64,000 bases of DNA from a virus (IMGVR_UViG_3300023440_000001:1-64000); one strand, 5' to 3'; numbered from the stretch's first letter, positions 1 through 64,000 are shown. The notes: generated by a model not told the origin, from the letters alone. Numbers and translations: made by a program.

Positions 1-3000
1 AACAGGTATTTCATCTCCATACTGAAGTCGATTCCATATTGCCCGGCGGGATTCTTCACTCAGGCGACTGATGATATCCTTATATTCTGTTAACCTCAGT
101 ATCCGATACTTTCGAGCATCTCCCAGTGCCCGTCCAATAGGCGTCTGACGAAGTTCGCCTTCACGTATCTCCCGTAACCAGTCTACAGCTTCGAAGAGAT
201 CTTCGATATTATCGATCTGTTCCGGCAGGCTTCCCTTCTTCAGCAGCTTTATGGACTGCTGTATCCAGGCCATGGCTTCCGCAACTGGCATCTTCTGTGT
301 CTTCTGGGACACGTAGGATATACCCAGCCGGCTATCCAGATAGGAGAGCATCTCCAGTGCTTCCGCAGCGGAACCACCGGCCAGCTTCATGGAATTGAGA
401 ATACCTTCTTCAAACAATGTGTAGAAGTACGGCTTAAAACGCGTATGACCCAGCGGTACACCGTAGCGGCTTTCAATCAGTTCATTAATATCTTTATCCA
501 CATAGTCCAGTAGATCCTGCATAACCTGCAGAGAGTCAATGGCTCGAAAACCCATAACCGGCAACAGACGGTCACCAATCTTGTTCAGTTCGATATCAAA
601 CAGTGCCGGCTTGTCCTTCTGGCCCAGGTCCGTGCGAATCTTGCGATAGAACTGCAGCTCTTTCTCCAGGGTGCGCATCTCTTCACCGGAAGTGGTACTG
701 TTAACCCGCTTCTGCAGATCGATAATATGCTGATCCAGCTTCTTGCGATATTCATCAATGGTCTTATTGTAGAGCTCCAGCGCCCGCTGTCGATTCAATC
801 CCATTTGCCGAGCCTGTTTCTGAAAAGACTCCTCCACAAAGCTCCAGGTTATCCCGGTCTTATAAAGTGATTCCAGCAACCGGTCGGGACTGATCATTTC
901 ATATAGCTGCATGGATTGAATGGATGGCAGGCGCACTTCCAGATAGTACTGACCAGGTACTCCGGGCAGCTGACGGGCGACAATGTTCTGAGTACCAGAT
1001 TCGCCCAGAAAGGGACGCAGCGCTTCCCGTGCGGCACGCACCAGGTGGTGTGGATTGCGGTTATAAGTGGGATCATTGTTGAGCTTTAACAGTATACGGC
1101 CAATCTGTACGGAATAGAATGAACCGATTTCGTTTCGACTGCCACCGAACTTGGATCCGACAACCATTGCCACCTGACTGGCAGAAAAGTCCAGTGCCTG
1201 ATTCCGACCACCAAATGTCTGAAAGACCACGGACTTGGCATTCTTGGTAGTTCCGATAGTATACTTCGTGCCCGGTCCGCCTTCCGTAATCGTATCCAGC
1301 ATAATCTGCAGCTTACCGCTCTCCTTATCGATCCGTACATCAACCACTACCGCATCATGACTGCCATCGAACTTCACCGGGCGAGAACTGTGCAGCCGAC
1401 GTGCCAGCCAGATATCGTCTTCCTTATCGGCAAATAACATGTATCGGTGCAATACCGGATCGCTCATTCGCTCTTCCGGCTTCAGCCGATAGTAGCGATC
1501 CATGATTGCTGCCACTTCATGTCTGGAAATCGTGGCGTCGGCATTCACAAAAGCATTCCAGTCCGGTCTGCCGGACAGAAGGTTCAGTCGCCGTTCCAGT
1601 GCCTGGCGGATGGGTTTACCCAGATCACGGCCAATCTCCTGATATATCTGCTGGGGAGATAACATCTCCCATTTCTTGGGTAGGTCGATCTCTATAGTGG
1701 TAATGCTGCCGGCACCACGGAAGTAGCGCGTAATCTTCCGTGCCGCTTCATGCATAACTGCCTGACTCTCCCAGACCAGCTGATGCCCCTCCGGTGCGTA
1801 GAATACCGGCAGCTGCAGGCTAGTATGCAGGCCGCCTCGTTCCAGATCCCGCTGGCCGCGGGCGAAGATATTGCGGAAGGAGTCATAGAGCGCAGCCCCG
1901 TGCGTTGTGGAGAGTACGTTACCAGGCATGTATTGAAATGGGCCTTTGGTGATTTCACTCAGCAGTTCTTTGGTTGGCGGAGCAAACTGCCAGCCCATGA
2001 AGGCCTGATACTTCTGACGCATCAGGTTATTGAGCAGACCAAAGGGAATCAGATGATGCATCTGAAACAGAGAACCGATTAGCTTGGCAGCCTGCTGTTG
2101 GGAGCTGGAGAACAGGGAGATATTGAAGAGACTCTCTTCGTCATCCAGAGCCGTAAAGACGTTGGGCCGGTAGAGATCCATGGCTTCGAATGTTCGGAAC
2201 CAGGCGGTGTTTCCATGCTGCAGAACTTCTCGGGCAACTTCGTGCAGGTGCCAGTACTTGTCAAAGTTATAGGGGAGTTTGCGCAGGTTCTGCTGCTGAT
2301 ACATCAGGACAATTGTATTCAAGGCCACGTCCACACCACCGGCATGGGCGCCTTTCAGAATACTGTCCGTGGCGGTCAATTTCATGCGGCGCACTTTACG
2401 GAACAGTTCCAGAACTCTCTGATAGGGAACGTCATTCTCTTCGGCAATGCGCTTTAGTGCCGCTTCAGGTATCTCTTCGGCTTTGCTGACCTGCGCCTGT
2501 TGCAGAATGGCACCGAATGCCGTATCATCCAGGCCGGTATAAGCCTTGAACTGCGCTTCCAGACTGAGTCCCTGGTTTAACTCACCCAACCCATAGATTC
2601 CGGCAATGGCGAAAGAGTCGATGATACCATCCGTACCGTGCCAGGGATCCATCTTCAGGAAGCGCATCATCTGCGGTTTCAGGGCTTCATAGGTATCCCG
2701 TTCGAACTGATTACCATATTGTAGTTGCTCGAAGAGTGTTTTCAGCAGGACAATATCCGCCCCGGCAATATTATGACCGGCCCGCACCCGTAACGCATTA
2801 TACGGCTCCGCAAAGTCAATCAGATCGCGAATGGCTTCGGCAAAGTTCTTCCGGCGCAGTCGGTTTGGTCCGATCTCGCCGGATGGACCCCGCAGTTCGT
2901 TATTGATAAAGTGTTCGACGTCTTTAGGATCAACACCCTTATTAATATAGAACTGCTTGATATAGTCATACCATTCGGCCTTTCCAGGGTCGATCAGAAT

Positions 3001-4725
3001 ATCAATGCTACCCACTTCTTCCCAGGTAGCCGTGTTGATAATCTTGGCACTGATGTTATAGACTTTGGTGCGCGGATCACGGATGACTTTCTGCGGACCA
3101 ACACCCTTCTGAGCCAGATCAGGGTGCGTAAACTCCAGGTCGAATACCAGCATATGCTCGTTACCAGCACCCAGTTTGGAAAGCTCGTCCAGAGACGGCA
3201 CACCACGGATGAGTCGTCGGTAATCGCGATAACTTCCCTTACCGATGGCCAGATTCAGATCTTCAAAGATGACAGACTGCTGACGGATGATATCCCTGAT
3301 GGTTCCACTGATTGGAGAGGATTGACCGAAGACACGATCCAGTGTTGACTGGACCACGTTTAAAGCTCTTAATGGGACACCTGAATCCGCAATATCATTG
3401 ACGATCTTGTCCGCTACTGCCCGGTACATCTGAGCAACCCGAGAAGTTGGGTCCAGTATGTTATCCGATCCGAAGGGCGCATAACGGGGAGATACGGTGG
3501 GCAACGCATGAGCCCCGCGAGACATGAATGGACCAGTTTCGACCGGGATTCTTAACCGCAGCGGCTGATAATGAGTAGCATTACGGTTGACAACTTCGAT
3601 AATGACGCTTTTATGGGTGAACCCGCCGAAACGTTCATATTGTAGCTTCAGCTGAACATCCAGACCGTCGATGGCATCCATCGCCCGAGAGAACTTCTTA
3701 ACCTGATCCCGCTCTACTGCTTCCCGAAGCAAATCCATGAAGAAGCGGTCCTGACGGTTCTTCAACTCCTGAATCTTGTTGCGCAGTTCATTATAAAGTT
3801 GAGTTATCTCCCGTGCCTGTTGATCAACGTTTGAGCGGGACGTATTGGGTAGGCCCATCAATTTCTGCCAGGCGGACTGGGTGGGTTCCGGTAGATCGGC
3901 ATCCAGAAGAAACTCCCGAACAGTTCTTTCAATGGAGAGATAGCTTTCCTGTCCGGTTGGTGTAAGGTTGCTAATACGAATGGTTCCTGGTTGATGGGTT
4001 GCCAGTTCCGGATAGGGTTTCTGTTCCGGTATTCGACCATATACATCAATGACCAGTTCCCGGTAGAAACGCTGTTCCTGCTCGGCTCGTTTCAGGAGAC
4101 GAATGTAGGACTGACGCAGCTTGGTGTTGCCGGGATCTTTGGATAAGTTATCAAATAGCGTGGCATAGCGATCCAGTAGCTCGAAGGTGATCTGTGACTC
4201 GAAGGCATCTTCCAGACGGAGACCGTATTGCTCTTTATAGGCAAGAAACTTCAGGTATTTGATGATTCGTTCCCGGGCTGGCTGTTGACGCGCCACATCC
4301 ATGAGCGAATGAAACTGTCGCCGGCGGAACTTCTCTTCCAGCAGCAGGATGTTCTCGGCCGAAGTCTTCTCCATCTGCTCCTGAGCCAGTCTGGCAGCCA
4401 CGGCCTGCTCCCGACGGATAAACTCCAGTGTCTGATTGGTACGCTGCTGCCGGGCATTAGTAATGATATCACTACCCTTTCGGGTGAATGCACGCCGGGT
4501 ACTCTCACCGCTACCTTCTATGGTGATTGACTGGCTGGTGCGGATAATGTCTTCAACAATGGGCGTCTGCCCGAAGACCTTTTCGATGACACTGCCCAGT
4601 TTATCAACTCCCCTACCCGCCCACTTCAGAACTTCCGGGTGGAACTTTACTACACCCAGGGCAGTGGGAGTTAAAAGAAGAACGGATTGCAGCTGATCAC
4701 GGTGGGTCTTCTCTTTGGTAGCCAT
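1..4725 (-). CDS. Giant protein, 3' end outside window (>=1575 aa): DEDDh 3'-5' exonuclease domain plus RNA polymerase beta/Rpb2-like region; putative virion RNA polymerase
   Basis: ATG at 4725, 4 nt after the stop of the 2707-aa gene; hand translation (MATKEKTHRDQLQ...) has no stop down to base 1. Exonuclease motifs: VFDLEFT (D529, nt 3141), GHNIAGAD (G650-D657), AHAGGVD (H794/D799). RNAP-like motifs: LIPFGLLNNLMRQKYQAFMGWQ (2052-1987), DAVVVDVRI..GTKY..KNAKSVV (~1356-1228), SRNEIGSFYSVQIG (1140-1099). Confidence 0.85.
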   Translation of the reverse strand, partial: MATKEKTHRDQLQSVLLLTPTALGVVKFHPEVLKWAGRGVDKLGSVIEKVFGQTPIVEDIIRTSQSITIEGSGESTRRAFTRKGSDIITNARQQRTNQTLEFIRREQAVAARLAQEQMEKTSAENILLLEEKFRRRQFHSLMDVARQQPARERIIKYLKFLAYKEQYGLRLEDAFESQITFELLDRYATLFDNLSKDPGNTKLRQSYIRLLKRAEQEQRFYRELVIDVYGRIPEQKPYPELATHQPGTIRISNLTPTGQESYLSIERTVREFLLDADLPEPTQSAWQKLMGLPNTSRSNVDQQAREITQLYNELRNKIQELKNRQDRFFMDLLREAVERDQVKKFSRAMDAIDGLDVQLKLQYERFGGFTHKSVIIEVVNRNATHYQPLRLRIPVETGPFMSRGAHALPTVSPRYAPFGSDNILDPTSRVAQMYRAVADKIVNDIADSGVPLRALNVVQSTLDRVFGQSSPISGTIRDIIRQQSVIFEDLNLAIGKGSYRDYRRLIRGVPSLDELSKLGAGNEHMLVFDLEFTHPDLAQKGVGPQKVIRDPRTKVYNISAKIINTATWEEVGSIDILIDPGKAEWYDYIKQFYINKGVDPKDVEHFINNELRGPSGEIGPNRLRRKNFAEAIRDLIDFAEPYNALRVRAGHNIAGADIVLLKTLFEQLQYGNQFERDTYEALKPQMMRFLKMDPWHGTDGIIDSFAIAGIYGLGELNQGLSLEAQFKAYTGLDDTAFGAILQQAQVSKAEEIPEAALKRIAEENDVPYQRVLELFRKVRRMKLTATDSILKGAHAGGVDVALNTIVLMYQQQNLRKLPYNFDKYWHLHEVAREVLQHGNTAWFRTFEAMDLYRPNVFTALDDEESLFNISLFSSSQQQAAKLIGSLFQMHHLIPFGLLNNLMRQKYQAFMGWQFAPPTKELLSEITKGPFQYMPGNVLSTTHGAALYDSFRNIFARGQRDLERGGLHTSLQLPVFYAPEGHQLVWESQAVMHEAARKITRYFRGAGSITTIEIDLPKKWEMLSPQQIYQEIGRDLGKPIRQALERRLNLLSGRPDWNAFVNADATISRHEVAAIMDRYYRLKPEERMSDPVLHRYMLFADKEDDIWLARRLHSSRPVKFDGSHDAVVVDVRIDKESGKLQIMLDTITEGGPGTKYTIGTTKNAKSVVFQTFGGRNQALDFSASQVAMVVGSKFGGSRNEIGSFYSVQIGRILLKLNNDPTYNRNPHHLVRAAREALRPFLGESGTQNIVARQLPGVPGQYYLEVRLPSIQSMQLYEMISPDRLLESLYKTGITWSFVEESFQKQARQMGLNRQRALELYNKTIDEYRKKLDQHIIDLQKRVNSTTSGEEMRTLEKELQFYRKIRTDLGQKDKPALFDIELNKIGDRLLPVMGFRAIDSLQVMQDLLDYVDKDINELIESRYGVPLGHTRFKPYFYTLFEEGILNSMKLAGGSAAEALEMLSYLDSRLGISYVSQKTQKMPVAEAMAWIQQSIKLLKKGSLPEQIDNIEDLFEAVDWLREIREGELRQTPIGRALGDARKYRILRLTEYKDIISRLSEESRRAIWNRLQYGDEIPV

Positions 4726-4729
4726 CTAC

Positions 4730-7700
4730 CTATTCTCCAAACAATCGAATGGTGTTGGCTCTTGTCACATTGGTTCGCTCACGCTGAATATCGATATTCA
4801 GATGAATGCTATTAGACGAAGTGCTCGGTATACTTCGTATCTGTATGATTGCATTCTGAACACCAAAGGATGCCAGAGCCCCTTCTATTATTGCTTTAAT
4901 GGTCGCCGAATCCATGTCGGTCGCAACTGGTTCCGGAGAAGGTCCATTGATATCAATCGCCTGCAGATTGAAAGGTGAATTCCGTATCCGTTGCTCCTGA
5001 CTCATCCAGCCCAGACCGAAGTCGTGGGCATCAAATCCGGCCTGTTCGGCGGTTAACATCTGCACATCATCCACGTTGACAGCCGGATTCATCACCGGCT
5101 CCATCATGGATGGCAGGTAGTGGTCCTGGAAGTAGCGAGTCAAATCCAGTTCCTTTTTAGATATGTCACGACGCCGATTCCAGGCCATGTTTAATACCAT
5201 GCGCATCTGGGCATCGACCATCTGAAGAATGTTGTCCTGTTCATCGGGTGGAGTGGATAGAAATGGGAACAGGAACGGCCGATCCCAGTACGGCAGCGCA
5301 CGAATGGCCTGACCCATTCGCTGACCATAGGTATCCTGTGGATCCTGATTCTCATTCGATTGTCCACCAACCAGGGCCAGGTTATGATTTACTCCCTGCC
5401 AGGGAGAACCAAAACCGCGGTCCACCCCGAGCCCCTGGGCTTCAGCAGTATGCAACCGGCGCATCAGAGGTTGCATTGTATCCTCCGAACGATTCAACTT
5501 GATACGATTAAACTGAATTGCCATATCACCCCAGCGTACCGAATCGGTGAAACTACCGGCCAGTTTATCCAGTTCTTCATCCGGTAGCTTAGGAAAGAGT
5601 CGCTTGAAAGATGCACGTATATCTTCATAACTGCTGCGCAGAAGTCGAGCCCGATTATACTCGAACTCGTGAGCAATCATCTCTGATACAAACTCGTAAT
5701 CATTCTTCGTATTATATCCACGCTGTTTCAGGAAACCGGCAACCCGCTTTTCCAGTGCGGGAGTCATTCCGGTTTTGCGATAGAATCCGGGTGGATCTAA
5801 TTCCATCAAGGCAGTATGGAAGTACTGGTGGGAACGTTCATGACGAATCAACTGCTTTATACGAGAGAGTTTGGCATTTATATTGTTAGCGATCAGAATC
5901 ATTGGAGAGTCATCGAACTCTTCTATCCATTGACGCAGGGCCTGGCGCTCTTTGTCCAGCAGACGAATCTGACCCACTTCACCATTCAGTAGTTTAACGA
6001 TCCGGTCACGATAGGTGGCATTCAGGATCGGAATAAAAGTACCTATCGCTTCCGCATTGATTTCCCCCTTTGCAATGAAGTTCAGTGCTTTCCTGGATAC
6101 TCCAATAATACCGCGCCATGGCGATCCGAATCCCTGGTCCTTACCGATACCCTGTGCTGCCGGGTTATGCTGTTTGCGGGAACGCGATGCCATCCCGCGT
6201 TCCGACATTGCCGAGATCGTCCAACCAACGGTAGTGCGCTGCATCTCTTTCAGAAACTCCGGGTTCCTGGTAGCCAGATACATCATCTGAGCCTTGTAGA
6301 ATCGCACCCGGTCAAAATACTGGGACATCTCACTCATCTCTTCAAAGCGATCCGGAATGTACCGGGTTCCGGTTATGCCACGATAGATACCATGCATAAT
6401 TCCATAGGCAACACCCAGTGGCGCAGTTATGGAAGCCAGTACCGGACCGCCGAATAACCAGCCACCGATTCCATAAGAGATAGCCCCCTGGATGGGATCG
6501 TCTACCGATCGCAGCCCGCGGCTATAGGGTTCGATCCAGTGCTGATAGGGCTTTGCCCAGTTCTTAAACTCCCGACCATACAGAACAAATCGCTCGTATT
6601 GTTCTTCCGGCGAGTAGAGACCGAATAGCTTGGAATGCAGCGGACTGCGCAGGTGGGTAAACTTCTCCCAGATACTACCCATAATTCGCTCGGGCAGGGT
6701 GTACTCAGCGGCAGCTTTAATGTTCTCATTCAGAGAGAAGTTCTGATATTCCGTATCGGGCGATAGGATCTGAGAGAACTTAAACCGATACGGATACATT
6801 TCCCATTTCCACATCATGGCCCGACGTTGGCGCTGTAGCTTGTTCAGTTCTCTGATCTCGGCTTCCCCCAGTACACCGGCTTCTTTCTGCTGTTGCAGGA
6901 TCTGCCAGGTATCTCGAAACTCCTGACTGAAAGGAGCCGCATTGATGAGTACCTTTGCCCGATCCAGAAAGCTATAAGCCTGTGCCGGATTCCCATACCC
7001 CTGAGCCAGATATTGAGCCGCCAGCTGTCGAGCCGTTTCCAGACGGTTCATCGTCTCTTCGTAAAGACGGGGATCGTAACGTACCTGGAAAGTACGTATC
7101 TGAGTGGGGTCATCACGGTTTACGTATAGCAGGATACCCTTACTCTCGTTGAGAATGTTCAGGTAGACATTGAGCTGGGTAATATGTTTGGATTTGGGCC
7201 AGTGGAGTCTCTTAAATCCCTGTGCTCCGATAGTCTTGATTTCTATCGGCATGTACCCATGACGGGTGTTCTTACTCTGGATCAATATGTCCACATAGCC
7301 CTTAATATTATGATAGGGATCGTATATCAGTGTTTCCGCCTTGGTATTCTTGTTCAGCCGGGTTAGCATCTCCTGTATGATACGGTGAGTTCGGGTCCCG
7401 GCATCCAGGATATCTTCTTCCATCTCTGTCAGCTCATCCCGGATACCAATCATTCGCAGTGCCTGCTCATAGGCGGAGTAACCCAGCTGAGAGGGACCAG
7501 CGGGAAAGGTCAGGCGGACATTTCTGGCAGTTTCATACCCTTCTCCAGGCAGCAGCAGTTCACCGAAGGGAACCTTTGTATTATGAGTACAGGCACCCGG
7601 CACACAGAATGAATCATCTGTATCCACTTCATATCCGTACACTGGACCCCGATAGTGCGCTCTGCGTATGTATTCGATCTCCAGTCGCAACCATTCGTAC

Positions 7701-10700
7701 TCGGTAAACCTGGTGTTCCATTCATATTCATACCAGCTGGTCGGGTCTCCGGGCAGGCCATTTATGTCCATACCACAGAGCATTGCCAGTTCACGAGCTG
7801 CTCGACGGCTGTAGTAAATGCGTCTGTCTTCAATCCATCCCACATAACCATGTTGCACCAGAATGTTCCAGGCCTGATAGGTGATGGCTTCCGTGGGCAG
7901 CTCAAAGTACAAATACTCGTCTGTTTCATCCCGATGGGCAAAAACTGCCATGAATTGGATAAAGACTGTCAGATCCAATCCATAGAAGTTCAGTGGCAAT
8001 CCTTCTTCAATGATACGTACCAGCAGCTTCCGCAGTGGCTCCACCTTATAAATGCCGGAGCTGGGCTGGACATCAAATAGATCCGCCAGTAGTCGGCGCG
8101 CTTCTGGCGCGCATGGCCCGGATAAGGTGAAATGCTGACTGTTCAAACGATCTATGGAAGACAGTAGTAGAGCGATCAACCGCACTATCCTACCGGTAAG
8201 CGGTACGTCGTCATTGACCGTTCCCCGCACCTTTTTCAGATGTAGTACATCGGGCATACTGATCTTTAACAGTGGATAAGTAACCCGCATATCTTCTGTC
8301 AGATCCCGGGCCTTTACCCACTGTTTATCAATCCAGAAGGGATGTTCTTCGGTAACCTTAATCTCCCAGGGCAGACCCCTAATCTTGATGACGTATATCT
8401 CTTCATCTACTTCCCGGATGGCTACTGCCTTTACCGGATAGAAGCGTCCCTTGACGGTACGGATCAGGTCACCTGGCTTAACGGCATCGGCTCGTACCAG
8501 ACTACCGTTTACTTCTACCATTGAGTCAGGTGTCAGACAGTACGGATCGGAGTGTTTAAACTCATCTGGCATCCAGGAAGGCATTTCGTTCCGTATCAGA
8601 CCCACCTTTTCGTAATCCGTTCGGGGACGCGGAAAGAGTCGGCGGAAGCCCTCGTTGATTAGCAACATATCCCCCAGGTTCTCATCCCAGTAGAAGCGAC
8701 GGAAGCTATCCATTTCATCGGCTGAAGCAAACACCGGCTGCTCGCCGGCATAAGGCTCGTTACCGCCCCACATAGCAGCGGAGGTGATGAATCCCATTAA
8801 ACCAGCAGGTTCAATGAATCCCCGATAAACCTGTTCGGCTATCAGCTGACGTGTATCCCATGGAGTGGTAATTTCACCGTGATAGGGAGACATGGTGCCG
8901 GATACGAATTGACCAAACTGCTGACTACCTTCCAGGCCCAATGCCGGAGCCCCGGCATAGATCGGACCATAACCCCACAGCTTTCTCTGATTTTCACTCA
9001 CACCGTCAGCAGTCAATACAGCACGTGCCTCTTCCACATGCATGGGTTTGTTTGAAGCAAACGGATGCAGCAGGTTATACAGCCGACCCACTGTTACACC
9101 CAGCAATGGCCCGACAATGGGCACTTCTGAAAACGGCGTGCTGGGTATAACATAGGGTCGGTCCCGATAGTGTTTCTTTTCCAGATACTGTGGCGCAATA
9201 ATATCACCCAGGCTGAAGTCCAGGAAAGGCAGGTCTTTAAAGATGAACTCTTCTATCTTGGATCCATATAGTGATGGCGACGCTTTGTACTGGGACTTAA
9301 GCCGTACATACCAGTTCGGCACCCAGGCACGGATACGACCACCTTCTATGGGAGTTGTTCCGGTTGTCCAGCCGGCGCCCCTACGATAGGGTACCTCTTC
9401 TTCACCCGAGTATATCTTACGGAGCTCATCATAGGATTTGGTCAGATCAGCAACGAATGGAGCCACCGGCGGTAGTATAGCCAGTGCCGATAATGGACCA
9501 CCTGAGAGCTGAGCCTGGGTATATCGGTTAATGGCCGCCCCTGCCAGCATACCTGGCAGACCACCCATCATAAAGCCCACTGCTGCACCGGGTATAATAC
9601 TGGTGGATTTGGGCATCAGCCCTTCCATGTACTTGGCAAAGTTGGTAATGCCGGCAATATCATAAATGCGGGCTGCCAGTAGTCGTGCGTTAACCGCCTG
9701 ATCGGCAATGGCTACCGTAAGACCTTCATCCAGCGCCGTACCATCGAACATGGGATTGACATCAAAGAAAGTATCCAGGGCATTATAGGCAGTCATCACC
9801 CCACTGAAGAAGAGCGCCCGCTTGGCCATCAGACCGGCAACACCACCCCGCCATTTACCATCTACCTTTTTAGGCAGGAAATGGGAATAACGCGCCCGGT
9901 TGAAGCCCAACCCCATGAAGTCCAGCGCCTGACCAAAGGTATCGTAAACATAGTCCATGGCCAGACTGAACAGCTCACCTTTATCCTTATGCAGTAGCAG
10001 GTATGGATCCGTATCGTATGTCTTTTGAACAATACCATAGATCTGTTCCCGATAGTTATCCGGTGGGCTATATTTAGCCGTCCAGCTTACCTCTTTGGAG
10101 AACGCTTCTAATACTCCGGCGTCGTCAGCCTGCTTCAGTACACCCAGTAACTGGGAAAGCTTCTCATAGTTTTGTTCTACCTCAGCGATCTGACGAATGG
10201 TATCCTGGCTGGTAATATTACGAAAGCGTGCCTGAGTAAAAAGCATCTGAACGAAAGCCTTATCCCGTCTGGTAGCTGTAGAGCCAACCAGATTACCAAC
10301 GGCGTTGATCAGACGGGTTGCCAGTGCACGATCATTTGCCACATCATAGGTGAGTTCCTGAGGAACATTGCTGGCGATGGACGTCAGTCGATAGTTAACC
10401 AGGAAACGCCGGAAACGGTCAGCCAGTGGTTCACCGATCGGATTGTAGAGCTCGTTCCGCAGACCACCCAGTTCCTTGGACTGCAATTCATTAATAGCTC
10501 GGGCAATAGAGCGGAACTCGGGCGTGGCTTCGGCAATCTTAAGACTACCTTTATCGAGTGTTTTGAAGAGCAGTTTTACGGCCTCATAGGCATCTTCGGC
10601 ATTGGCGAGTATGTCAGCATGCTTGCCCTGGATGGCTTCAATGAATTTGATATCCGGATCGCTTTTGGTCAGCTGAAGCGGTTTGAATAACTCCTTGAAC

Positions 10701-50504: not shown

Positions 50505-50506
50505 CC

Positions 50507-50782: not shown

Positions 50783-50796
50783 ATTCTGTACCTATC

Positions 50797-53719: not shown

Positions 53720-54021
53720 GTAACCTCCTGTTTTCTCTAGATATGTCACAGATGCGCCTATATAGGGACCCAAATTCACTTCTCTCATATTTCAGACAAC
53801 GCAATGGCAAACGAATCCCGGCTCCCGAAAACGTGCCCCCCGGGTCTTACCATCGAACTTTGCGAACTACTGAATACAGCTGAAGTAGAGGAGTGGTAAG
53901 GACTTACGCCATCGAACTTGTGGAGCAGGTTCGGTAATACTCCCCTGGTATTAACTCTGTAAGGTATTCACACCAACCCACTGGTACTGATATCCCCGGG
54001 TATTGACTCTGTATCCTATTC

Positions 54022-54070
54022 GCGATCCACTAACGCCACTTTTCGTCGAAAGGTGCCATTAGTGGATCGC
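54022..54070. repeat. Long hairpin in the divergent intergenic region
   Basis: GCGATCCACTAA..CACTTTTCG/CGAAAGGTG..TTAGTGGATCGC. Confidence 0.6.
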
Positions 54071-54324
54071 TGATAGATGAGTGCGGCCTTAATAGGGGTG
54101 TGAAAAGCGGTGCGGTGAGGGAAGAGGTGCGCTTAATAGGGCCTTCAAAAGTTGTGCGGCGAGGGGAGTAGTAGGTAGTGAAATGATATAGGACCCGTGG
54201 AGCTCGGCGTTTCGAGCCCCCCGGGTTCTTTTGTTTGTACCCTACCTGAGAATACGAGTCCGCTCCGGTAGGGGTGTAGGTAAAAGGGACTCATCAACGT
54301 GCCAAAACAAAAGGAGGAACAGTT

Positions 54325-55278
54325 ATGGCACGATTAAGTGAGTTAGTTAGTAGCAGATCATTAAAAGCCCTGCAAAAGATGCAGGGTAAAATCCAAGAGG
54401 GGCGTCATCTCTCCGAGCTGGAGAGACATGGCTCCTACTGGAGAACAACAAAGGGCCGCAAAGAGGCAGAAGACGCGGCCTGGAAGTACTGGAGCCAGGA
54501 CCCGCTCCTAACAACGGATTGGGTCATGCGCAAGCATGACAAGCTGCAAGAACGCCGTGGTAGAAAGCGGTCTGAATGGGTCCAGCTTGCTCAGGCTGAA
54601 CCGCAGCTGAGGCAGGCTGAATCTCAGCTGGATCAGGCCGCTGAGCGCCTGGAGGAGTCCAAATCGGATCCAGTCTATCGCCATCGCCGGCCTCGTCATC
54701 GACGCTGGAAACAGCTCTACGCAGAGCTGTTGAAAGCCCAGGCCAAGTATAACGAGACCTGGCAGCGATACATGGATGCTCTAGAGAGAATGGAACGTCT
54801 GGAGCAATCCATAAGAGACATAGACCGCAACGCTGACAAGTTGCAGCGTAGGGTTAGTAAGCTGCAGCATAAGCTTGCGGTAATATTCGCCTGGGCCAGC
54901 TCTGAAGCGGTTGCCCAACGCAATAGGGCCACTTCTAAAGCAGCCGTTAAGACTGCTAGGGCTGCCACCAAGGCTGCAAAAGCTTCCACTAAGCCTACTC
55001 CTACTACTACTACTACTACTACTACTGCCCCTGCTGTTACTCAGGAAGCTGTGGCAGTGAAGAAACAGTCTTTTAAGTTACCGAAGTTTGAGACTGCTGG
55101 GATTGTTTCCAGGAAAGTCTCTTCGGTAATCAAGAAACGCATTATTTGGGTACTCGACGGTTTAAGAGTGCTCAAATATCGCAATAAAGACAACAAGAAA
55201 GTCATGGAACTGCTCGCAACATATACTTACAGCTCCATGGCTGAGGCTCGCCGAGCACTCAGTGTAGCTATGGCCTAG
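54325..55278 (+). CDS. Basic coiled-coil protein with a poly-Thr linker; first gene of the + strand arm
   Basis: AAAGGAGG RBS; (ACT)n tract at ~55002-55026. Confidence 0.7.
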   Translation: MARLSELVSSRSLKALQKMQGKIQEGRHLSELERHGSYWRTTKGRKEAEDAAWKYWSQDPLLTTDWVMRKHDKLQERRGRKRSEWVQLAQAEPQLRQAESQLDQAAERLEESKSDPVYRHRRPRHRRWKQLYAELLKAQAKYNETWQRYMDALERMERLEQSIRDIDRNADKLQRRVSKLQHKLAVIFAWASSEAVAQRNRATSKAAVKTARAATKAAKASTKPTPTTTTTTTTAPAVTQEAVAVKKQSFKLPKFETAGIVSRKVSSVIKKRIIWVLDGLRVLKYRNKDNKKVMELLATYTYSSMAEARRALSVAMA

Positions 55279-55376
55279 CAGAGATGAGCAAACAACTAAA
55301 CAACGCCTTGCCCATGGGACGTGACCCCATGAACAAGGCAAAACCACAAACACAAACATCCAGAAAGGAGGATATC

Positions 55377-58067
55377 ATGGCTAATTTAAGTCATGCAATC
55401 CGCGTAGGCAACAAGGAATATACGTTGCCTCGCGCTGGTCTCCGTCTTCAGCTGACCATCCGTGAACTGGAAGACGGTCAGTTGGAGATTACGGAGCAAC
55501 ACGTCCCGACGCGGCCCTATCTGGACCACGTTCTGGGAGAGGACTACATTGTAGTTACCTCGAACAGTAAGGTCTGGTTCCAGCGAGCCGTTGTTGGGAT
55601 GGAACCCACCATTGCCGGGTGGAGTGTGGCCGCCGGTTATTTCAAGACCGGCTGGGTTACGCTCTTCCTGACGCCTGGTAGGAAAGAGTTTCTCTGGGCT
55701 CGGGATAAACTCGGCTTACTGGTCGAGGGTAACCTGGATAAGGCGTTCAAGTACGTCAAACGGTTATATGCGCCTTATCAGGCTCACACCTTCGTACCAG
55801 TGAGCGATGTCAAGTATCGTATCATTGAGTACGATGGTGACCTCGGCCGTGTACTGGAGGGTGCTGTTCTTATTCGCCATTCTGCTGCCAACAAATGGTT
55901 TGGCGGCAACATCAAGGTAGGTGAAATCCTGAAGTTCACCGCCTTGACAGTTGAAGGGATGGTGAAGGGTCACGCCCTCGTCTTACCAGATTCCCGTTTG
56001 AGCTACGACTTCGTGTCGTATGAAATCAAACGGGAAGTACGATCAACATCCGGTGAGATGTTTGTCGGTATGATTGGTCGTGCTATTGGCCACGATTGGG
56101 CTAGGACTGATATTCAGTCCTTGACCAATTTCGAGTTGGCCAGTTTCTTCCATGAAGAAACCAGGGCCTTCTTGGATGAGGTCGAGACCCACATCATGGA
56201 TCCAGAGTGGCTGCGTGAAAAGCTGGCGGTTTATGCCACTCTGGATGACGATCCTGATGCTGGTCAGACTGCAATGAAGCTTGTACAGGCTTTAAAGCAG
56301 TTTGACAATCCTCTAGAGTTTCCGTTCATGAAACGGTCCATCATCAATACATTCCTGAAGATGATGACTGATCCTGGACGGGGACGAGTCATCACCCATA
56401 AAGCCATAAAACGCTATCTCTTCCCGGATATGACCGCCTTTAATCATAAAGGCGAGTTCATGGGAGAAGGTAGCGGCGTGCTTGGCCATGCCAGCGTATT
56501 CGCCGGAAGCAATGTGGAAGGCGATGTGGTATTTCATCGCCAACCCAATGCGGAAGGCGAGTACTATCCGGCTGTGGCCATAGTCAGCGAAAAGCTGGCT
56601 GAACTTGAGGGTCACGCACTGTTTTACAGTGTGGCTGACCTGAAAGAGGCGGCCTATATGCTGGAAGTGCTGGGTGGTGGTGATAATGATGATGGTGTCA
56701 TCGTCTGGTATGACCCGGATGTTGTGGAGCACTTTCTGGATCTGCCCATGGTGGATCCGGATAAGCGCTTTGGTAATCCGGAGAAGAAGGATGTGGTTGA
56801 GATCCCAATAGGTCTTACACCGCAGAACTTCTTCCGCCTTGTCAACGAGAAGATTGGTATGCGCGACTTCATTGGTAAAGTCGTGAATGCCATGTTTATC
56901 GGCAAGGCCCCTGTGTCTGGACCAAGCATTTGGTTTGGTGCCAACCAGGAAAGTCTCATTGATACCAACGTAAAGATGGGACAGCTGGATGGTACCGAAC
57001 ATCCGCTAGTGGCTCTGGCAAATGAGCAGGATGAGACGATCAAGGTCGTTGCTGCTCATACTAGAGGTCGTTGGTCCAAACGGCTCCGGGAGCGTGTTGA
57101 GGCCGGTGAGGTTCAAGTGATCGAAACTGAACTCACCAAAGCTCTCAACTATGCCTGGGAACGGGTGAGTGCGATTGAAAAAGAGATCAATCGCAGCACT
57201 CTATATCCTCAGGTGCCAATGGATGTCTTGCGTGTGCCTGAAGATAAAGTAGCAGCTGGTGCTGCAAAGGATATCCGGGTGCTCTGGGGTAAGTTCTGGG
57301 CTGAACATCGTCCAGAAGACGATGAACAGTTCCGAGAACTGTATCGCCAGGCGAGCGAGCTCGTGGTACTAGAACTTGCTCAGTACAGCTACAGCACACA
57401 GATCTATATTGTGGCTGAGTTGTACAAATGGGTGTATTTCACCCGCGAGCTCAATACCGAAGTTCTAACAAAGATCGCCGCCGGTGAGGCTAGTTACCCG
57501 GACGGCGTCTTGTGGACCTCAGATGTGGAAGAGATGCGTGGAACAGCCACCTTGCTGTTCGACCTCTTCCGCATGTTAGGCACGGGCTTCATCTGGCGGA
57601 AGGTCTCTAACCTGAAGCCGGATTATCGGAAAGGTGAGTTTGAAGTCATCGTTGCCCGCAATGAGGTCAAACTGGCATCCGGCCGTGTCATCGGATTTGT
57701 GAAAGCACCGAATGGTCGCTTTACGATGAAACACGGCTGGATTGCCGTGCCACAGACATTCTACACTGTGCCTGAGTCTACAAAGGCTGTGACCATCGTC
57801 AACGGGTGGTCGTCGGCTATTAAAGCAGGCCAGGCATCTGAAGATGATGTCGAGGCATGGAAGGCAGCCAACGCAGACAAAGTCGCTGAGCTGGTCTACA
57901 CAACTTACAACAATAAGCCTGCCGTCGAAGTTCGAGTTGATGGCGAGCTTATCGGGTATGTGGCCATCAGCGGCGTTAATACTCTGCGCATGGCAGGCAA
58001 TCCAACCCAGGTTAAAATCACCCGGCAGGGATCTTCTCAGATGACCCTGCTGGGTCTGATTCAGTAA
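55377..58067 (+). CDS. Single-chain two-barrel RNA polymerase (YonO / eukaryotic RdRP-like), 896 aa
   Basis: In order: EGAVLI, K..KGHAL (55932-55967), FHRQP (56532-56546), LGGGDNDDG (56670-56696), IGKVVN, SLIDTNVK; AAAGGAGG RBS before the ATG at 55377. Confidence 0.72.
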   Translation: MANLSHAIRVGNKEYTLPRAGLRLQLTIRELEDGQLEITEQHVPTRPYLDHVLGEDYIVVTSNSKVWFQRAVVGMEPTIAGWSVAAGYFKTGWVTLFLTPGRKEFLWARDKLGLLVEGNLDKAFKYVKRLYAPYQAHTFVPVSDVKYRIIEYDGDLGRVLEGAVLIRHSAANKWFGGNIKVGEILKFTALTVEGMVKGHALVLPDSRLSYDFVSYEIKREVRSTSGEMFVGMIGRAIGHDWARTDIQSLTNFELASFFHEETRAFLDEVETHIMDPEWLREKLAVYATLDDDPDAGQTAMKLVQALKQFDNPLEFPFMKRSIINTFLKMMTDPGRGRVITHKAIKRYLFPDMTAFNHKGEFMGEGSGVLGHASVFAGSNVEGDVVFHRQPNAEGEYYPAVAIVSEKLAELEGHALFYSVADLKEAAYMLEVLGGGDNDDGVIVWYDPDVVEHFLDLPMVDPDKRFGNPEKKDVVEIPIGLTPQNFFRLVNEKIGMRDFIGKVVNAMFIGKAPVSGPSIWFGANQESLIDTNVKMGQLDGTEHPLVALANEQDETIKVVAAHTRGRWSKRLRERVEAGEVQVIETELTKALNYAWERVSAIEKEINRSTLYPQVPMDVLRVPEDKVAAGAAKDIRVLWGKFWAEHRPEDDEQFRELYRQASELVVLELAQYSYSTQIYIVAELYKWVYFTRELNTEVLTKIAAGEASYPDGVLWTSDVEEMRGTATLLFDLFRMLGTGFIWRKVSNLKPDYRKGEFEVIVARNEVKLASGRVIGFVKAPNGRFTMKHGWIAVPQTFYTVPESTKAVTIVNGWSSAIKAGQASEDDVEAWKAANADKVAELVYTTYNNKPAVEVRVDGELIGYVAISGVNTLRMAGNPTQVKITRQGSSQMTLLGLIQ

Positions 58068-58147
58068 TAAACTAACCAAGAACATTGAGAAGACCCCGAT
58101 AGCCATTCAGGTTGTCGGAGTTTTCTGTTAGAAAAGAGGTAAAGACA

Positions 58148-59203
58148 ATGTTAGAAGCCCTCAAATCCTGGTGGGTCATCGTCCAGAACACAGGAAAGTG
58201 CTTTGGATGTGCCTACTGTATCATTTCACAACGAAAGGATTTAGGTGGGATGTATGCAGAGGTGGCTATCGGTGACTTGCCATCGAAGTATCTGGGTGAT
58301 CGTGGACGTGACATCCCCGTGGTTATTGATAACTACTTCGGGGATCCGTCCACACAACAGGATCACCTGAGACAGGCCCTGATGGCCTTAAAAGAAGACG
58401 GCCATCGTGGACCTATTGGCATCATCACAAAAGGGAAGTTCGGCCGACAGACGATTGATCTGTTGGCCAGCATTCCCAATGTGGTGGTGCTGCAGTCCAT
58501 ATCGGGACTGCCTAGAAGCATAGAACCCGCAAAACTGGAGACGCGTGTCGAGAATATGCGTCGTCTGGTGGAGGCAGGGATTAAGACTATCGCTTACCTG
58601 CGACCAATTATCGCAGGGTATAATGATAGCCCAGAATCCCTGCAACGGGTTCTGAATCTAATTAAGCTCACCGGAGTCGATACCGTTGTGTACTCCGGCT
58701 TCCGGATAACAGAAGAGACCCGGAAACTGATGGAAGCCAACGGTATTGACATGTCTGGTTTCAAGGAAGATCCGGAACACAAACAGATGCCGGAAGAGGC
58801 TCGTGAATTCATCGAGACTTACGGACACTCAATCGGATTGAAGGTGTTCCGGAAGACTTCCTGCGGGGTTAGCTATCTGTTGGGCACGTCAGACTATAAT
58901 GCCCACTGGAGTAATCCCACAAAGTACGAGTGCCAGAACTGCCCAAATCTCGGCAAATGTTTGCCGAAGTTAAAGTCAGTGGCAGTCCGGGAATCCGTAT
59001 GCAAACCCAAATGTCCACACCAATGTTCCAGTTGCCCATTCTTGAAGGACAACCAGGTACATCTGACTGGTAAATGGACCCTGGGTGAGTTATCAGTAGC
59101 CCGGTGGATACTTGGTCAGCAGGTAACGGCTGGGGAGATTATTAACACGCCGGGTATACTGAATGTTGAAAAGCTCCGCAACTTAAAGAAGGAGGTGAAA
59201 TAA
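58148..59203 (+). CDS. Radical SAM protein (SplB-like) with extra C-terminal Cys clusters
   Basis: CFGCAYC, IITKG, SISGL..IEP, LRPIIAGYND; C-terminal CQNCPNLGKC and CPHQCSSC. Confidence 0.75.
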   Translation: MLEALKSWWVIVQNTGKCFGCAYCIISQRKDLGGMYAEVAIGDLPSKYLGDRGRDIPVVIDNYFGDPSTQQDHLRQALMALKEDGHRGPIGIITKGKFGRQTIDLLASIPNVVVLQSISGLPRSIEPAKLETRVENMRRLVEAGIKTIAYLRPIIAGYNDSPESLQRVLNLIKLTGVDTVVYSGFRITEETRKLMEANGIDMSGFKEDPEHKQMPEEAREFIETYGHSIGLKVFRKTSCGVSYLLGTSDYNAHWSNPTKYECQNCPNLGKCLPKLKSVAVRESVCKPKCPHQCSSCPFLKDNQVHLTGKWTLGELSVARWILGQQVTAGEIINTPGILNVEKLRNLKKEVK

Positions 59204-60141
59204 TGAAGACCTTCTTTAAGCCCAGTGGAGCTGCATGTCCACAAGGCTGTGCGTATTGCATTGTGGACATGAATCCCAACCGCCGGAAGGAGTATCTGGA
59301 GTCAGTTCTGTACTTCATGAACTCCTTCGTGGCGATAAACATCATGCCTGAACGGAGGGACCAACATCTTGAAGAGATTCGAAACCTCGATTGGTCCCTC
59401 TTTTCGGGTGACTATCTGGGATTCCAGGGTGCATCAGAACCATTAATGTACAAACGTACCCTGTTTGATATCCTGGGCAAGGCCAGGCAATTCGGCTTCA
59501 AGGTAGCGATTTGTTCCAAGCTATCCATCGGCCGAAGATTGGCAAAAGAGCTGGCCGAGTTTCGGGATGTCTTGGACATTGAGATTTCATATGCCAAGCT
59601 CTCGGAACTGGAAAGGTCGGACGCCAAACGCCTGGCATCGATAGGAAATGCCCTGGAAGCTGGTTTCGACGTGCTGACAGTCATTCAGCCGTTTATATAC
59701 GGTTTGACGGATGTCAGACTCGAAGAGCTGATCCGGGAGCTGAAGAGCGTGGGAGCCACCTACGTCTCTGTGAATGGCTTCCGATATTCCAAGGCAATGG
59801 AATGGTGGGCCAGGCAGGTACTTCCACATCACATACTCCAGATGTATAGGGAGAATGAGGGTGTGGAATACCTGCCTGATCGGGGTCAGATAGAAGCCCG
59901 ACTAACAGCGGCCGGGTTCAAGGTAACCAAGATCTCTAAATGGTTACGAAGGAATGAATCCGGACGCTACAAGGACCCTGCCGAGGTGATTTCGAATATG
60001 AAACGTCTGGTTGGATTTAAAAGTCAAATAGACCCTTCTAATCCTGATTGGAGGGTCTGCGATAACGAACATCTTCGCGTAGCAAGCGATAGCAATAGTG
60101 AGATGCTTGCAAAGATGTTCGAAAGGAGAATGAACTTCTAA
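59203..60141 (+). CDS. Radical SAM protein (SplB-like)
   Basis: CPQGCAYC, ASEP, IQPFIYGLTD; coupled to the previous gene. Confidence 0.75.
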   Translation: MKTFFKPSGAACPQGCAYCIVDMNPNRRKEYLESVLYFMNSFVAINIMPERRDQHLEEIRNLDWSLFSGDYLGFQGASEPLMYKRTLFDILGKARQFGFKVAICSKLSIGRRLAKELAEFRDVLDIEISYAKLSELERSDAKRLASIGNALEAGFDVLTVIQPFIYGLTDVRLEELIRELKSVGATYVSVNGFRYSKAMEWWARQVLPHHILQMYRENEGVEYLPDRGQIEARLTAAGFKVTKISKWLRRNESGRYKDPAEVISNMKRLVGFKSQIDPSNPDWRVCDNEHLRVASDSNSEMLAKMFERRMNF

Positions 60142-60989: not shown

Positions 60990-61193
60990 CTAATGAGGCC
61001 TCCTCTCTGGGGGTCCGGGCAGAGTTTCCTCCTCCTTTTGCTCACCCGGGCTCCCAGTGAGTAGGTTCGCCCATCCGACTTACACCGCTATTCATAGGTG
61101 ACTGCCCCTAGGTTGGGGTCAGTCGGCAATGGGCACTGTGGCACCACGCCGGGCATGTCGCCGAAGTGGTGTCCAGCCATGGAGGAGTATACC

Positions 61194-61520
61194 ATGGCTA
61201 TCTATAATATGGAATTGAGTCAAACTTCAATGTCCGCCCCGAACGGTGGACCTGTATTCTTATTAAAGGTCGGGTTCGGCGACCCGGCAACCAACGCCGA
61301 GATCGTTCCGTTCGTCGCCGAAAACGCTCCCGACGCAAACGGCGCAGTACTGTTAATTAACGGGCCCGCCAGCCTTCCGGTGGCAATGGCGCTGGCTCAC
61401 AAATACGCTCATGTATTCGGGGCCGTGGCGGCCTTCGACCCGAAGTTATCCGGGTACGTAGTCGCCATTAGCCACGATCCCGAGTTACCGGTCGGCAAAG
61501 TGCTGAAGTTCGATATGTAA
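61194..61520 (+). CDS. csx3: Csx3/Crn3-like cyclic oligoadenylate ring nuclease
   Basis: 108 aa (GGAGGAG RBS): LLINGPASLPVAMALAHKYAH..FDPKL..YVVAISH. Confidence 0.75.
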   Translation: MAIYNMELSQTSMSAPNGGPVFLLKVGFGDPATNAEIVPFVAENAPDANGAVLLINGPASLPVAMALAHKYAHVFGAVAAFDPKLSGYVVAISHDPELPVGKVLKFDM

Positions 61521-61644
61521 TATGCCGACCGGCGACCTGGGCATGTCGTTAAACTGCCCCGTCGACCGGGCGACGTAAAATAGGCCTTAGGCCCGGTGCG
61601 GCTCCGCTTCGGCGGAGCGTGGTAACCAAACAACAGAGGTGACC

Positions 61645-62004
61645 ATGATCGATATTAAACGTGCCACATCGGGCGTCTATGCCGCTGGGCGCCTGATGAA
61701 TGACATAACTGCGGCGGCAATTCGCCTTGCGGATGAGCCGGCTGTCCGCGAGGCTATCAAAGCCGGGAAGGAAGTCATCGTTGATGTAGACTTCCGGACC
61801 GGTGAAGTCCGGCTGATAACCAACCCCAGCCGGGTCGGTGAATACCTGGCAAAGGCCGAACGTGTCTTCGAGCCCAGCCAGGTCACCGAAATGCCCTGGC
61901 CGCATTGGTGCCATGCCATGTGCGAAGCCGGGGCACAATGGACGGACTTCATCTACAAAGATGACATTGTAAATGAAGTCCGTGCCTGGCTGGATCAGCT
62001 GTAA
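61645..62004 (+). CDS. Hypothetical protein
   Basis: GAGGTG RBS. Confidence 0.6.
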   Translation: MIDIKRATSGVYAAGRLMNDITAAAIRLADEPAVREAIKAGKEVIVDVDFRTGEVRLITNPSRVGEYLAKAERVFEPSQVTEMPWPHWCHAMCEAGAQWTDFIYKDDIVNEVRAWLDQL

Positions 62005-62014
62005 GCTCGTCACT

Positions 62015-62061
62015 GCCACCGGTCTGGTGACCCGGAACGGGTTCGATTCCCGTTCGGTGGC
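62015..62061 (+). ncRNA. Minimal tRNA-like element without an anticodon arm
   Basis: GCCACCG/CGGTGGC stem, GTC-TGGT-GAC hairpin, ACGGG-TTCGATT-CCCGT T-arm. Confidence 0.5.
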
Positions 62062-63772: not shown

Positions 63773-64000
63773 GTGACCTACTACCACATCTCGCATATTC
63801 CTGGCCTGCGGGAACTGCGCCCGTTTCAAGGCCGGGTTTACGTTACCACCAGAGGCTGGATCGCCTACTGGGCTGCCTGGGTCTCCGGTAAGCACGATCG
63901 CCCGCATGACGAGCTGTATGTCTATCGGGTCGACGTACCGGATGACGCTGTTATCGGTTGCGGTATCGAAAGCGCTGTGGTGGGTGACTTCTACGTCGAA
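63773..64000 (+). CDS. Partial ORF, possible ADP-ribosyltransferase-like fold
   Basis: GGAGGT plus GTG; MTYYHISHIPGLRELRP..RVYVT..LYVYRVD; open to the window end. Confidence 0.4.
   Translation, partial: MTYYHISHIPGLRELRPFQGRVYVTTRGWIAYWAAWVSGKHDRPHDELYVYRVDVPDDAVIGCGIESAVVGDFYVE

Follow-up and report, generated by a model that had tools for sequence, protein, structure and literature searches.

The stretch of DNA analysed here, called the window below, consists of bases 1-64000 of one 136,294-bp contig held as a virus record in IMG/VR (IMGVR_UViG_3300023440_000001:1-64000), and it forms the left part of an incomplete phage genome. The phage is large, contractile-tailed and uncultured, and resembles Bacillus phage 0305phi8-36 and Moorella phage MTATph1 in type. 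It carries a virion module on the minus strand from 4.7 to 43 kb, a plasmid-type island on the plus strand from 43.4 to 49.4 kb, and a plus arm whose second gene encodes a predicted single-chain RNA polymerase of 927 amino acids (aa). Copies of a 12-nucleotide (nt) motif are scattered along the minus arm. An earlier note on this DNA had proposed a phage-plasmid with two RNA polymerases, one of them injected with the virion, and a promoter of its own. Our study favours, with a probability of about one half, a phage with a plasmid-type island and a YonO-type polymerase, in which the virion genes would be expressed from the motif. The coordinates of all features are collected in Table 1.

The 927-aa protein is well supported as a YonO/RdRP-type single-chain RNA polymerase, its activity being predicted from alignment and modeling. 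A full HMMER scan of 1.84 billion representatives has returned 85 homologues at E <= 1e-3, and the 47 near-full-length ones were aligned with the protein (48 sequences). The residues K156, R160, K228, D467, D469 and D470 are invariant in this alignment, the basic ones among them being candidates for the conserved basic residues of the second barrel. PF05183 (RdRP) is matched by 8 of the 48 members (best E 1.5e-10), and in the Atlas 21 of 30 feature hits fall into the family set carrying RdRP. The AlphaFold2 model built from the 48 sequences showed a mean pLDDT of 86.5. Its Foldseek matches were QDE-1 (E 4.6e-15 over 876 columns), RDR2 (E 5.5e-12), and P74 gp62 and P32 gp64 (E 6.1e-7), while VIA-align gave RDR2 with Z 20.3 over 609 residues, QDE-1 with Z 16.8 and P32 gp64 with Z 15.6 over 496. 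Residues ~367-498 were also found to superpose on the largest subunits of cellular polymerases (Z ~7, VIA-align), and residues 768-927 lie outside the structural matches. In BFVD, the matches were 'RdRP' proteins of uncultured phages and gp64 of P23-45.

Further, the profile of the protein matched two of the three phages searched, through gp99 of 0305phi8-36, annotated as a hypothetical DNA-directed RNA polymerase with Pfam05183, and CST179 of c-st, annotated as a YonO homologue. The hhalign comparison with gp99 gave a probability of 97.2% (E 3.2e-11) and placed LGGGDND-DG against GGADTDGD. The metal loop is of the form DxDD, one residue shorter than DxDGD with the third aspartate kept, and it is present in all 48 aligned sequences (85 homologues having been found). 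A tblastn search of the protein against phages gave no match, and a single literature search found no paper pairing DxDD with RNA polymerase and double-psi. The separate single-chain polymerase claimed in the earlier note is thus borne out by a fold like that of QDE-1, RDR2 and gp64 and by profile homology to gp99. Directly 3' of the polymerase gene, in the same operon, lie two radical-SAM-like genes (58112-60141, plus strand; E 4.2e-4 and 5.1e-6, under cut-off).

The window contains 11 copies of the motif KTGACATAHCTA, every one on the minus strand, the chance expectation being 0.03. Its consensus is (K)TGACATAHCTA. The whole contig holds 15 exact copies, 11 on the minus strand at or below position 53,749 and 4 on the plus strand at 93,061, 104,992, 119,894 and 132,818, and shuffled sequences give 0.26 copies of the motif core. 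When up to one mismatch is allowed, all 20 sites point along the direction of their own arm. Eight of the 11 window copies stand 15-71 nt ahead of a called start codon. Conservation is confined to motif positions 0-11, with no second block within -30 to +41 and none at the -35/-10 spacing, and sigma-70-like sites are not enriched near the motif (24 against 21.4 expected). Nine of the 15 copies start with TTGACA and the other 6 with GTGACA. The sigma-70-type reading of the motif was rejected as no -10 block stands at the right spacing. The motif is absent from MTATph1 and 0305phi8-36, and a single TGACATAGCTA in c-st was taken as a chance occurrence. The part of the earlier promoter claim which stands is the strand-specific repetition of the motif ahead of minus-arm genes; as to its role, it may act as a promoter read by the 927-aa enzyme.

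A second class of conserved elements has been found beyond the window, in which the palindrome GTAGACTnnCAGTCTAC is followed after ~14 nt by ATTCACTCCC; its 7 copies all lie on the plus strand. At contig position 65473 a ribosome-binding site comes immediately afterwards, so that the transcript would start at or before ATTCACT. One copy of the 12-nt motif, that at 93061, is nested inside one of these elements. The same arm has a 242-aa open reading frame (ORF) which may encode a sigma factor; its Sigma70_r3 match scores 24.4 bits against a cut-off of 25.3, and both of its region matches lie just under the cut-offs.

In the island, the guanine-cytosine (GC) fraction falls to 0.43-0.46 across 44-50 kb. 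Its ParA partition ATPase has at least 5000 matches in plasmid records, and the protein in the ParB position showed no match to ParB or any other Pfam family. The iteron field (TRF periods 22 and 44) lies in the 434-bp gap before the Rep-like gene. The 493-aa product of the latter has no match of its own in Pfam, PHROG or NCBIfam, and tblastn linked it to one plasmid record, a Deinococcus 'plasmid replication initiator protein' (CP029777.1, E 3e-5). The pairwise comparison of the two proteins gave 23% identity over 253 aa (E 3e-12), and the Deinococcus initiator is itself a Pfam RPA protein (E 4.7e-34). Hence, ParA and eight 22-bp iterons remain of the replicon proposed in the earlier note, together with a Rep which is a weak, 23%-identity match to a Pfam RPA protein. 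The PAS-sensor regulators of the same note were recovered as the gene with helix-turn-helix (HTH) and PAS domains and the divergent HTH_3 gene, whose C-terminus shows a weak PAS match (E 2.5e-4, under cut-off). Plasmid partition and replication genes in a phage genome are described as a screening criterion for phage-plasmids (Pfeifer et al. 2021, PMC7969092), and here structural and packaging genes are found together with a partition gene. The ParA/iteron/Rep-like island would most likely let the prophage persist as a plasmid. The temperate, plasmid-maintained lifestyle which had been proposed is inferred from genes alone. It is argued against a chimeric join that the 12-nt motif flanks the island on both sides (42698; 51127, 52207, 53749) and recurs at 93-133 kb.

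Table 1. Features of the window and of the contig beyond it, with positions counted from the first letter of the window
Feature	Position	Strand	Evidence or remark
Giant ORF in tape-measure slot, 1575 aa present, C-terminus cut by contig end, open at left edge	1-4725	-	tape-measure slot
gp145-like 2707-aa virion protein homologue	4730-12853	-	phrog_1706 E 6.7e-20 at aa 1787-1944
Cas4-like PD-(D/E)XK nuclease domain in 2707-aa protein	7019-7495	-	
Intein, 320 aa, in 2707-aa protein	7580-8539 (aa 1439-1758)	-	motifs read in sequence
Two tail-tube-like paralogues	16179-16871, 16933-17577	-	phrog_9206 E 4.6e-30, 9e-41
Contractile tail sheath	17731-20439	-	phrog_16991 E 2.7e-43
Major capsid protein	23695-24981	-	phrog_3922 E 1.6e-13
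Portal protein	29142-30758	-	phrog_9232 E 4.6e-41
Large terminase subunit	32015-34288	-	phrog_2 E 5.4e-25
Head maturation protease	40507-41052	-	phrog_1684 E 3.1e-13
CI/Cro-type HTH regulator, divergent, repressor-like	42701-43285	-	HTH_3 E 2.5e-14; phrog_5823 E 7.9e-16
Small HTH protein heading the island	43485-44060	+	HTH_31 E 3.5e-5, under cut-off
HTH + PAS sensor-type regulator	44446-45666	+	PAS_3 E 2.3e-14; PAS E 1.3e-12; HTH_3 E 0.0024
ParA partition ATPase	45724-46590	+	AAA_31 E 1.1e-42; phrog_164 E 2e-54
Protein in ParB position, 18-nt coding repeats at 46703-46940	46547-47443	+	
Iteron field, ~4 x 22 bp and ~4 x 22 bp inverted, ~120 bp apart	47434-47517, 47638-47721	.	repeat families D2, D3, pairs I1-I6
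Candidate replication initiator, RPA/RepA-like, 493 aa	47877-49358	+	weak, transitive
Coiled-coil-like protein, 317 aa, first plus-arm gene, just 5' of polymerase	54325-55278	+	weak SMC/Rad50-type matches
Predicted single-chain two-barrel (YonO/RdRP-type) RNA polymerase, 927 aa, metal loop D467-N-D469-D470	55284-58067	+	
Motif copy GTGACATATCTA	5158-5169	-	inside end of gp145-like gene, 444 nt 5' of ATG 4725
Motif copy	13936-13947	-	40 nt 5' of start codon 13907
Motif copy	17620-17631	-	54 nt 5' of tube-like gene start 17577
Motif copy	27276-27287	-	15 nt 5' of start codon 27272
Motif copy	29156-29167	-	last codons of portal gene, 42 nt 5' of start 29125
Motif copy	31079-31090	-	inside ORF 30762-32015, 332 nt 5' of portal start
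Motif copy	39899-39910	-	37 nt 5' of start 39873
Motif copy	42687-42698	-	71 nt 5' of start 42627, just below repressor-like gene
Motif copy	51116-51127	-	50 nt 5' of start 51077
Motif copy	52196-52207	-	55 nt 5' of start 52152
Motif copy, outermost of minus arm	53738-53749	-	inside ORF 52862-53788, ~30 nt 5' of internal AGGAGG-preceded ATG 53719
Palindrome/ATTCACTCCC elements	contig 65473, 70145, 82498, 93030, 107918, 118494, 134065	+	outside window
Possible sigma factor, 242-aa ORF	contig 101677-102405 (L021:1306-2034)	+	Sigma70_r3 E 3.2e-5; region 2 E 0.0018

The contractile-tail virion module of the earlier note was recovered, as its sheath, tube-like genes, capsid, portal, terminase and protease matched PHROG families. 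The tube-like paralogues occupy the same position as tube gp140 and gp141 of 0305phi8-36, and the order of sheath, tube, tube paralogue, small genes, gp145-like gene and another giant gene is common to the window, 0305phi8-36 and MTATph1. A tblastn search of phages with the terminase returned 8 records at 24-31% identity, namely MTATph1 as the best (31%), 0305phi8-36 and other Bacillus jumbo phages, and Acinetobacter ME3. At the nucleotide level, megablast of the segments 23-33 kb and 42-56 kb gave no match in the phage collection. The 2707-aa protein matches gp145 of 0305phi8-36, recorded as a virion protein on the strength of mass spectrometry, and MTATph1 CDS0026 (E 1e-16 to 8e-18), the alignments skipping aa 1432-1759. 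The skipped part carries the intein signature DPY|CLTPD...TEEHPFW...ACTHN|T, that is Cys1, the block B TxxH and the C-terminal HN followed by Thr, with weak Hint and Intein_splicing matches (E 0.013-0.056). The insertion site stands just ahead of the Cas4-like nuclease domain, and the intein residues are absent in the 0305phi8-36 and MTATph1 homologues. Past the window, the plus arm carries a family-A-type DNA polymerase, a ribonucleotide reductase, a RecD-like helicase, a UvsX-like recombinase, a primase and a methyltransferase.

Between the island and the divergent region, the motif-bearing stretch at 49539-52152 (minus strand) holds a PD-(D/E)XK nuclease (E 1e-22) and a nucleoside 2-deoxyribosyltransferase (E 5.3e-11). 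The late-arm ORF at 52862-53788 (minus strand) combines an fn3 domain with a C-terminal sorting domain of type IX secretion (Por_Secre_tail E 3.3e-10). This protein hints at a host with type IX secretion, though the genes carry strong AGGAGG ribosome-binding sites. The gene-free divergent region (53790-54324, 535 bp) contains a palindrome with 30-nt arms at 54016-54076, two 37-nt direct repeats at 54088-54168 and, directly ahead of the first plus-arm gene, a terminator-like hairpin at 54214-54228; Rfam at gathering scores returned nothing in this region. Farther along the plus strand, a full-length Pistol ribozyme (RF02679) lies at 61560-61624, scoring 62.5 bits against a gathering score of 34.5 and overlapping a probably spurious minus-strand ORF (61549-62019), and 61098-61520 shows a weak Csx3/Crn3 ring-nuclease match (TIGR02579 E 1.5e-6, 28.4 bits against a cut-off of 55.4).

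The contig is classed as linear in IMG/VR, and its CheckV completeness is 72%. No terminal repeat was found in the contig and no tRNA in the window. The left end is present in two runs of one microbial-mat study (0.96 of sampled words), and contigs of both runs have been placed on window positions 1-12000. The X2 contig (Logan, 10,044 nt) agrees with window 1-459 in its own letters 1-459 and carries on beyond window position 1 for 9,585 nt or more. In X1, position 2 is preceded by a continuation of 58 letters, which does not match the right end of the contig and occurs nowhere in the whole contig with up to 3 mismatches allowed, and a second short X1 record likewise crosses the left contig end. 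A circle formed by joining the ends would keep the frame of the giant ORF open for 60 more codons, yet it was rejected on these X1 and X2 continuations. Since X2 extends past position 1 and the X1 continuation is foreign to the contig, the record is a fragment ending at an assembly fork. Circularity is unsupported, and the earlier description of one element was not borne out, in view of the linear class of the contig, its 72% completeness and the X2 extension. As the contig is a fragment, ORF 1-4725 is truncated. Assembly-graph forks and a patch dense in single-nucleotide polymorphisms were observed in both runs at 1-31, 5478-5507, 6443-6485 and 8516-8545; the minor branches at the forks have a depth of ~5 against ~60, and these features indicate co-existing strains of the phage.

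ORF 1-4725 comes next after the gp145 homologue, a place taken by gp146 in 0305phi8-36 and by CDS0027 in MTATph1; a note in the record of gp146 gives it as a virion protein on the strength of mass spectrometry. Nothing was found with this ORF in Pfam, PHROGs, NCBI-type families, the Atlas, two word-indexed homologue searches, or the IMG/VR and metagenome scans. Pfam at E <= 10 on three pieces and phmmer against PDB gave nothing relevant, tblastn against phages at E <= 1 gave nothing, and no match was seen in three related phages, the best BLASTP value against gp146 being E 1.8 (no detectable similarity). The ORF showed no relation to the YonO-type profile, the Rpb2_6, Rpb1_2, RdRP and RNase_T (PF00929) profiles had no match over the contig, and none of DxDxD, DxDD and DDxD occurs in the 1575 residues on the contig. 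With no homologues for an alignment, its single-sequence model (pLDDT 39) was unusable. Possible DEDDh exonuclease motifs are seen at aa 527-799 (FDLEFT, GHNIAGAD and HAGGVD), which MAFFT aligns, with no statistical support, with DLETT, NVVGFD and HEALTD of CDS0027. In both cultured relatives, the slot protein (gp146 and CDS0027) shows an ExoI motif of DnaQ type (LDIETTGL, LDLETTTL), and the two proteins are complete and have no DxDxD.

A profile of three gp145 homologues was used to gather 14 IMG/VR loci, and the slot gene could be read in 12, including 0305phi8-36. DxDxD is present in the slot protein of 7 of these 12 loci (L022, L023, L025, L026, L033, L034 and L035) at residues 1014-1843, in contexts such as AGDYDFD, AGDFDAD and ADSDGD, and is conserved within two sequence groups. 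The five slot proteins which do not have it are three near-identical ones, L028 and 0305phi8-36, and among the neighbouring gp145-like proteins it is found in one of 12. With phmmer, ORF 1-4725 matched none of the 51 open frames of 500 aa or more taken from the 14 loci. In hhalign, the probability against the slot alignments was at most 1.3%; this null is uninformative because the slot-protein groups do not detect each other, the control having failed with 1 of 21 group pairs reaching 74.5%. For the virion exonuclease-RNA polymerase of the earlier note, neither domain has therefore gained support from families, folds or homologues, and the 1575 residues show no Asp triad; what is left is a resemblance at the level of motifs. 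Our reading of the sequence is that of a tail-core slot protein, possibly with an exonuclease. That it holds a polymerase core is unlikely, at odds of roughly one in four, which allow for a loop situated after residue 1575. The tail-core slot merits a full-length look, as a polymerase-like Asp motif recurs there in relatives.

In the explanation which we prefer, the plus-arm operon holding the phage polymerase would be expressed first, probably by the host polymerase. The 927-aa enzyme would then start at the 12-nt motif and transcribe the particle genes, a late-gene role modelled on that of YonO for the late operon of SPbeta. The genes, the fold and the motif statistics are observed here, and the motif as promoter, the enzyme as its reader and the plasmid lifestyle are inferred.

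Several observations weigh against this scheme and favour other assignments of the enzymes. The 927-aa ORF has no match of its own in Pfam, PHROG, NCBIfam or PDB sequences and does not reach PF05183, and its loop is non-canonical. No genomic context for its relatives was found in the viral, metagenome and genome collections, and none of the sequencing runs in which the stretch occurs is an RNA run. Three of the 11 window copies of the motif (5169, 31090 and 53749) stand away from a called start, the palindrome/ATTCACTCCC class (65-134 kb) competes for the phage polymerase, and the sigma-like ORF could direct the host polymerase to the motif. In T4 and SPO1, late promoters are read by a host polymerase redirected by a phage factor. 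Here, likewise, the host polymerase could read the motif with the help of a phage sigma-like factor or activator, leaving the YonO-type enzyme to other genes, e.g. those behind palindrome/ATTCACTCCC. The initial TTGACA of most motif copies fits this assignment, as does the fact that gp64 of P23-45 is described as reading early and not late promoters (PMC10770324). We hold it to be unlikely, since the sigma matches fall under the Pfam cut-offs, no -10-like block stands 16-18 nt after TTGACA, GTGACA begins the remaining copies, and the 28 nt from motif to ATG at 13947 are too short for a -35/-10/leader layout. Similarly doubtful is a relay in which ORF 1-4725 is an injected virion exonuclease-RNA polymerase reading the plus arm, with the YonO-type enzyme reading the motif thereafter. 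The ORF does stand in the tape-measure slot, where P23-45 is described as fusing its virion polymerase (PMC10770324). The excess of DxDxD in related slot proteins over their gp145-like neighbours, its position past residue 1575 in three of the seven, so that the window protein may have its loop in the missing part, the ExoI motifs of both cultured slot proteins with their possible counterparts in the same order, and two conserved element classes unlike sigma-70 promoters all point the same way. Against them stand the empty profile, structure and homologue searches for every part of the ORF, the missing Asp motifs here and in the complete slot proteins of the two cultured relatives, and the shortness of DxDxD, which may arise by chance in giant proteins. 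Moreover, nothing ties any enzyme to the plus arm, and no evidence was found for the claim that an injected polymerase reads it. A fuller relay is more improbable still; in it, an injected slot giant with a DnaQ-like exonuclease and a polymerase core, the catalytic loop of which would be situated just past the contig end, would read palindrome/ATTCACTCCC in the plus arm, and the early DxDD enzyme would then read TGACATAnCTA virion promoters in a plasmid-kept temperate myovirus of 0305phi8-36 type.

The strongest competitor, which we consider possible but less probable than the preferred explanation, concerns the lifestyle. The phage would be virulent or integrating, with ParA, iterons and Rep-like protein serving lytic replication or another role; an assembly chimera is the less likely form of this alternative. 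The Rep call is transitive only, the contig is not a closed circle, and the phage encodes all the replication functions it would need (DNA polymerase, primase, RecD-like helicase, UvsX-like recombinase and ribonucleotide reductase). Partition genes are described to occur too in SPO1-like phages called strictly virulent (PMC7969092), and the GC dip over the island would also suit this alternative. No integrase or resolvase match (PF00589, PF00239) was found in the 136 kb, which argues against an integrating phage; the contig is ~72% complete and an integrase could lie in the missing part. What speaks for a plasmid prophage is that ParA, iterons, Rep-like protein and the regulators of CI type and with PAS domains are grouped in a single island of divergent arrangement, and a chimera is opposed by the phage-specific motif on both sides of it and at 93-133 kb. 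A phage with a plasmid-type island, a YonO-type polymerase and virion genes probably driven from the motif is retained as the best explanation overall.

Comparison with known systems shows from where the pieces of this arrangement are familiar. YonO of the temperate Bacillus subtilis prophage SPbeta is described as transcribing late structural genes (Forrest et al. 2017, PMC5467207), and it resembles the 927-aa protein as a single-chain enzyme of ~100 kDa from the two-barrel/RdRP family; its temperate phage and its late-gene role would have their counterparts in the proposed lifestyle and role here. In contrast, there is no direct sequence match between the two, the link running via gp99 and the PF05183-bearing homologues, and the loop here is DxDD. 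SPbeta, moreover, is described as integrating and as expressing its late genes as a single operon from one site (PMC5467207), whereas 15 motif copies are present here. The same paper calls for further investigation of the promoter sequence recognised by YonO and of the need for helper factors.

0305phi8-36 (EF583821.1) shares with our phage the homologous polymerase gp99, the gp145 homologue and the gene order around its gp145-gp146-gp147 tail-core block, and a distantly related terminase. It differs in that identities are 24-36%, gp145 has no intein, gp146 has no detectable similarity to its counterpart and the motif is absent. Among jumbo phages, YonO-like single-subunit enzymes have been listed for both 0305phi8-36 and c-st (Iyer et al. 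2021, PMC7824862), and Clostridium phage c-st is called a pseudolysogenic phage of botulinum neurotoxin (BoNT) in a mobilome of plasmids and circular bacteriophages (PMC8473940). Like the phage studied here, c-st (NC_007581.1) is large, is not described as integrated in the sources consulted, and has a YonO homologue (CST179/CST177) and a ParB-like gene. On the other hand, its YonO homologue is annotated in two pieces, the profile match to it is weak (E 5.8e-7) and no gp145 homologue was found in it. c-st is reportedly kept as a plasmid. A prophage that is not integrated and has a polymerase of its own finds a precedent in c-st.

In Thermus phage P23-45, a virion polymerase fused to the tape measure, gp96, and the non-virion gp64 are described as acting in a relay (Chaban et al. 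2024, PMC10770324). The likeness lies in the P74 gp62 and P32 gp64 structures, which match the 927-aa model, in the two classes of promoter motif and in the virion enzyme placed in a tape-measure gene. P23-45 is a lytic siphovirus whose gp64 reads early genes, whereas the slot protein here has no Asp triad in its available part. The phage-plasmids P1, N15 and SSU5 (PMC7969092) resemble our phage as phage genomes with plasmid partition and replication genes, a state known here from genes alone; the term 'RNA polymerase' is absent from the searched passages of that paper. Given YonO, c-st and P23-45, the earlier statement that a temperate phage with such a transcription programme would be unusual was overstated.

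Our study reflects a combination of known pieces, namely a virion module of 0305phi8-36 type together with a YonO-type polymerase, a proposed late-gene role as known from YonO of SPbeta, a probable non-integrated lifestyle with c-st as its precedent, and possibly a relay as in P23-45. What is new is narrower and consists of the DxDD-loop clade, the 15-copy candidate promoter and the ParA/iteron/Rep-like island in this lineage, 0305phi8-36 not having been searched for the island. If the plasmid-type replicon is functional, its presence in a phage of 0305phi8-36 type would extend the phage-plasmids to this large-myovirus lineage. Further, the presence of 15 copies of a compact candidate promoter beside a well-modelled enzyme makes a simple in vitro test of a YonO-family promoter possible.

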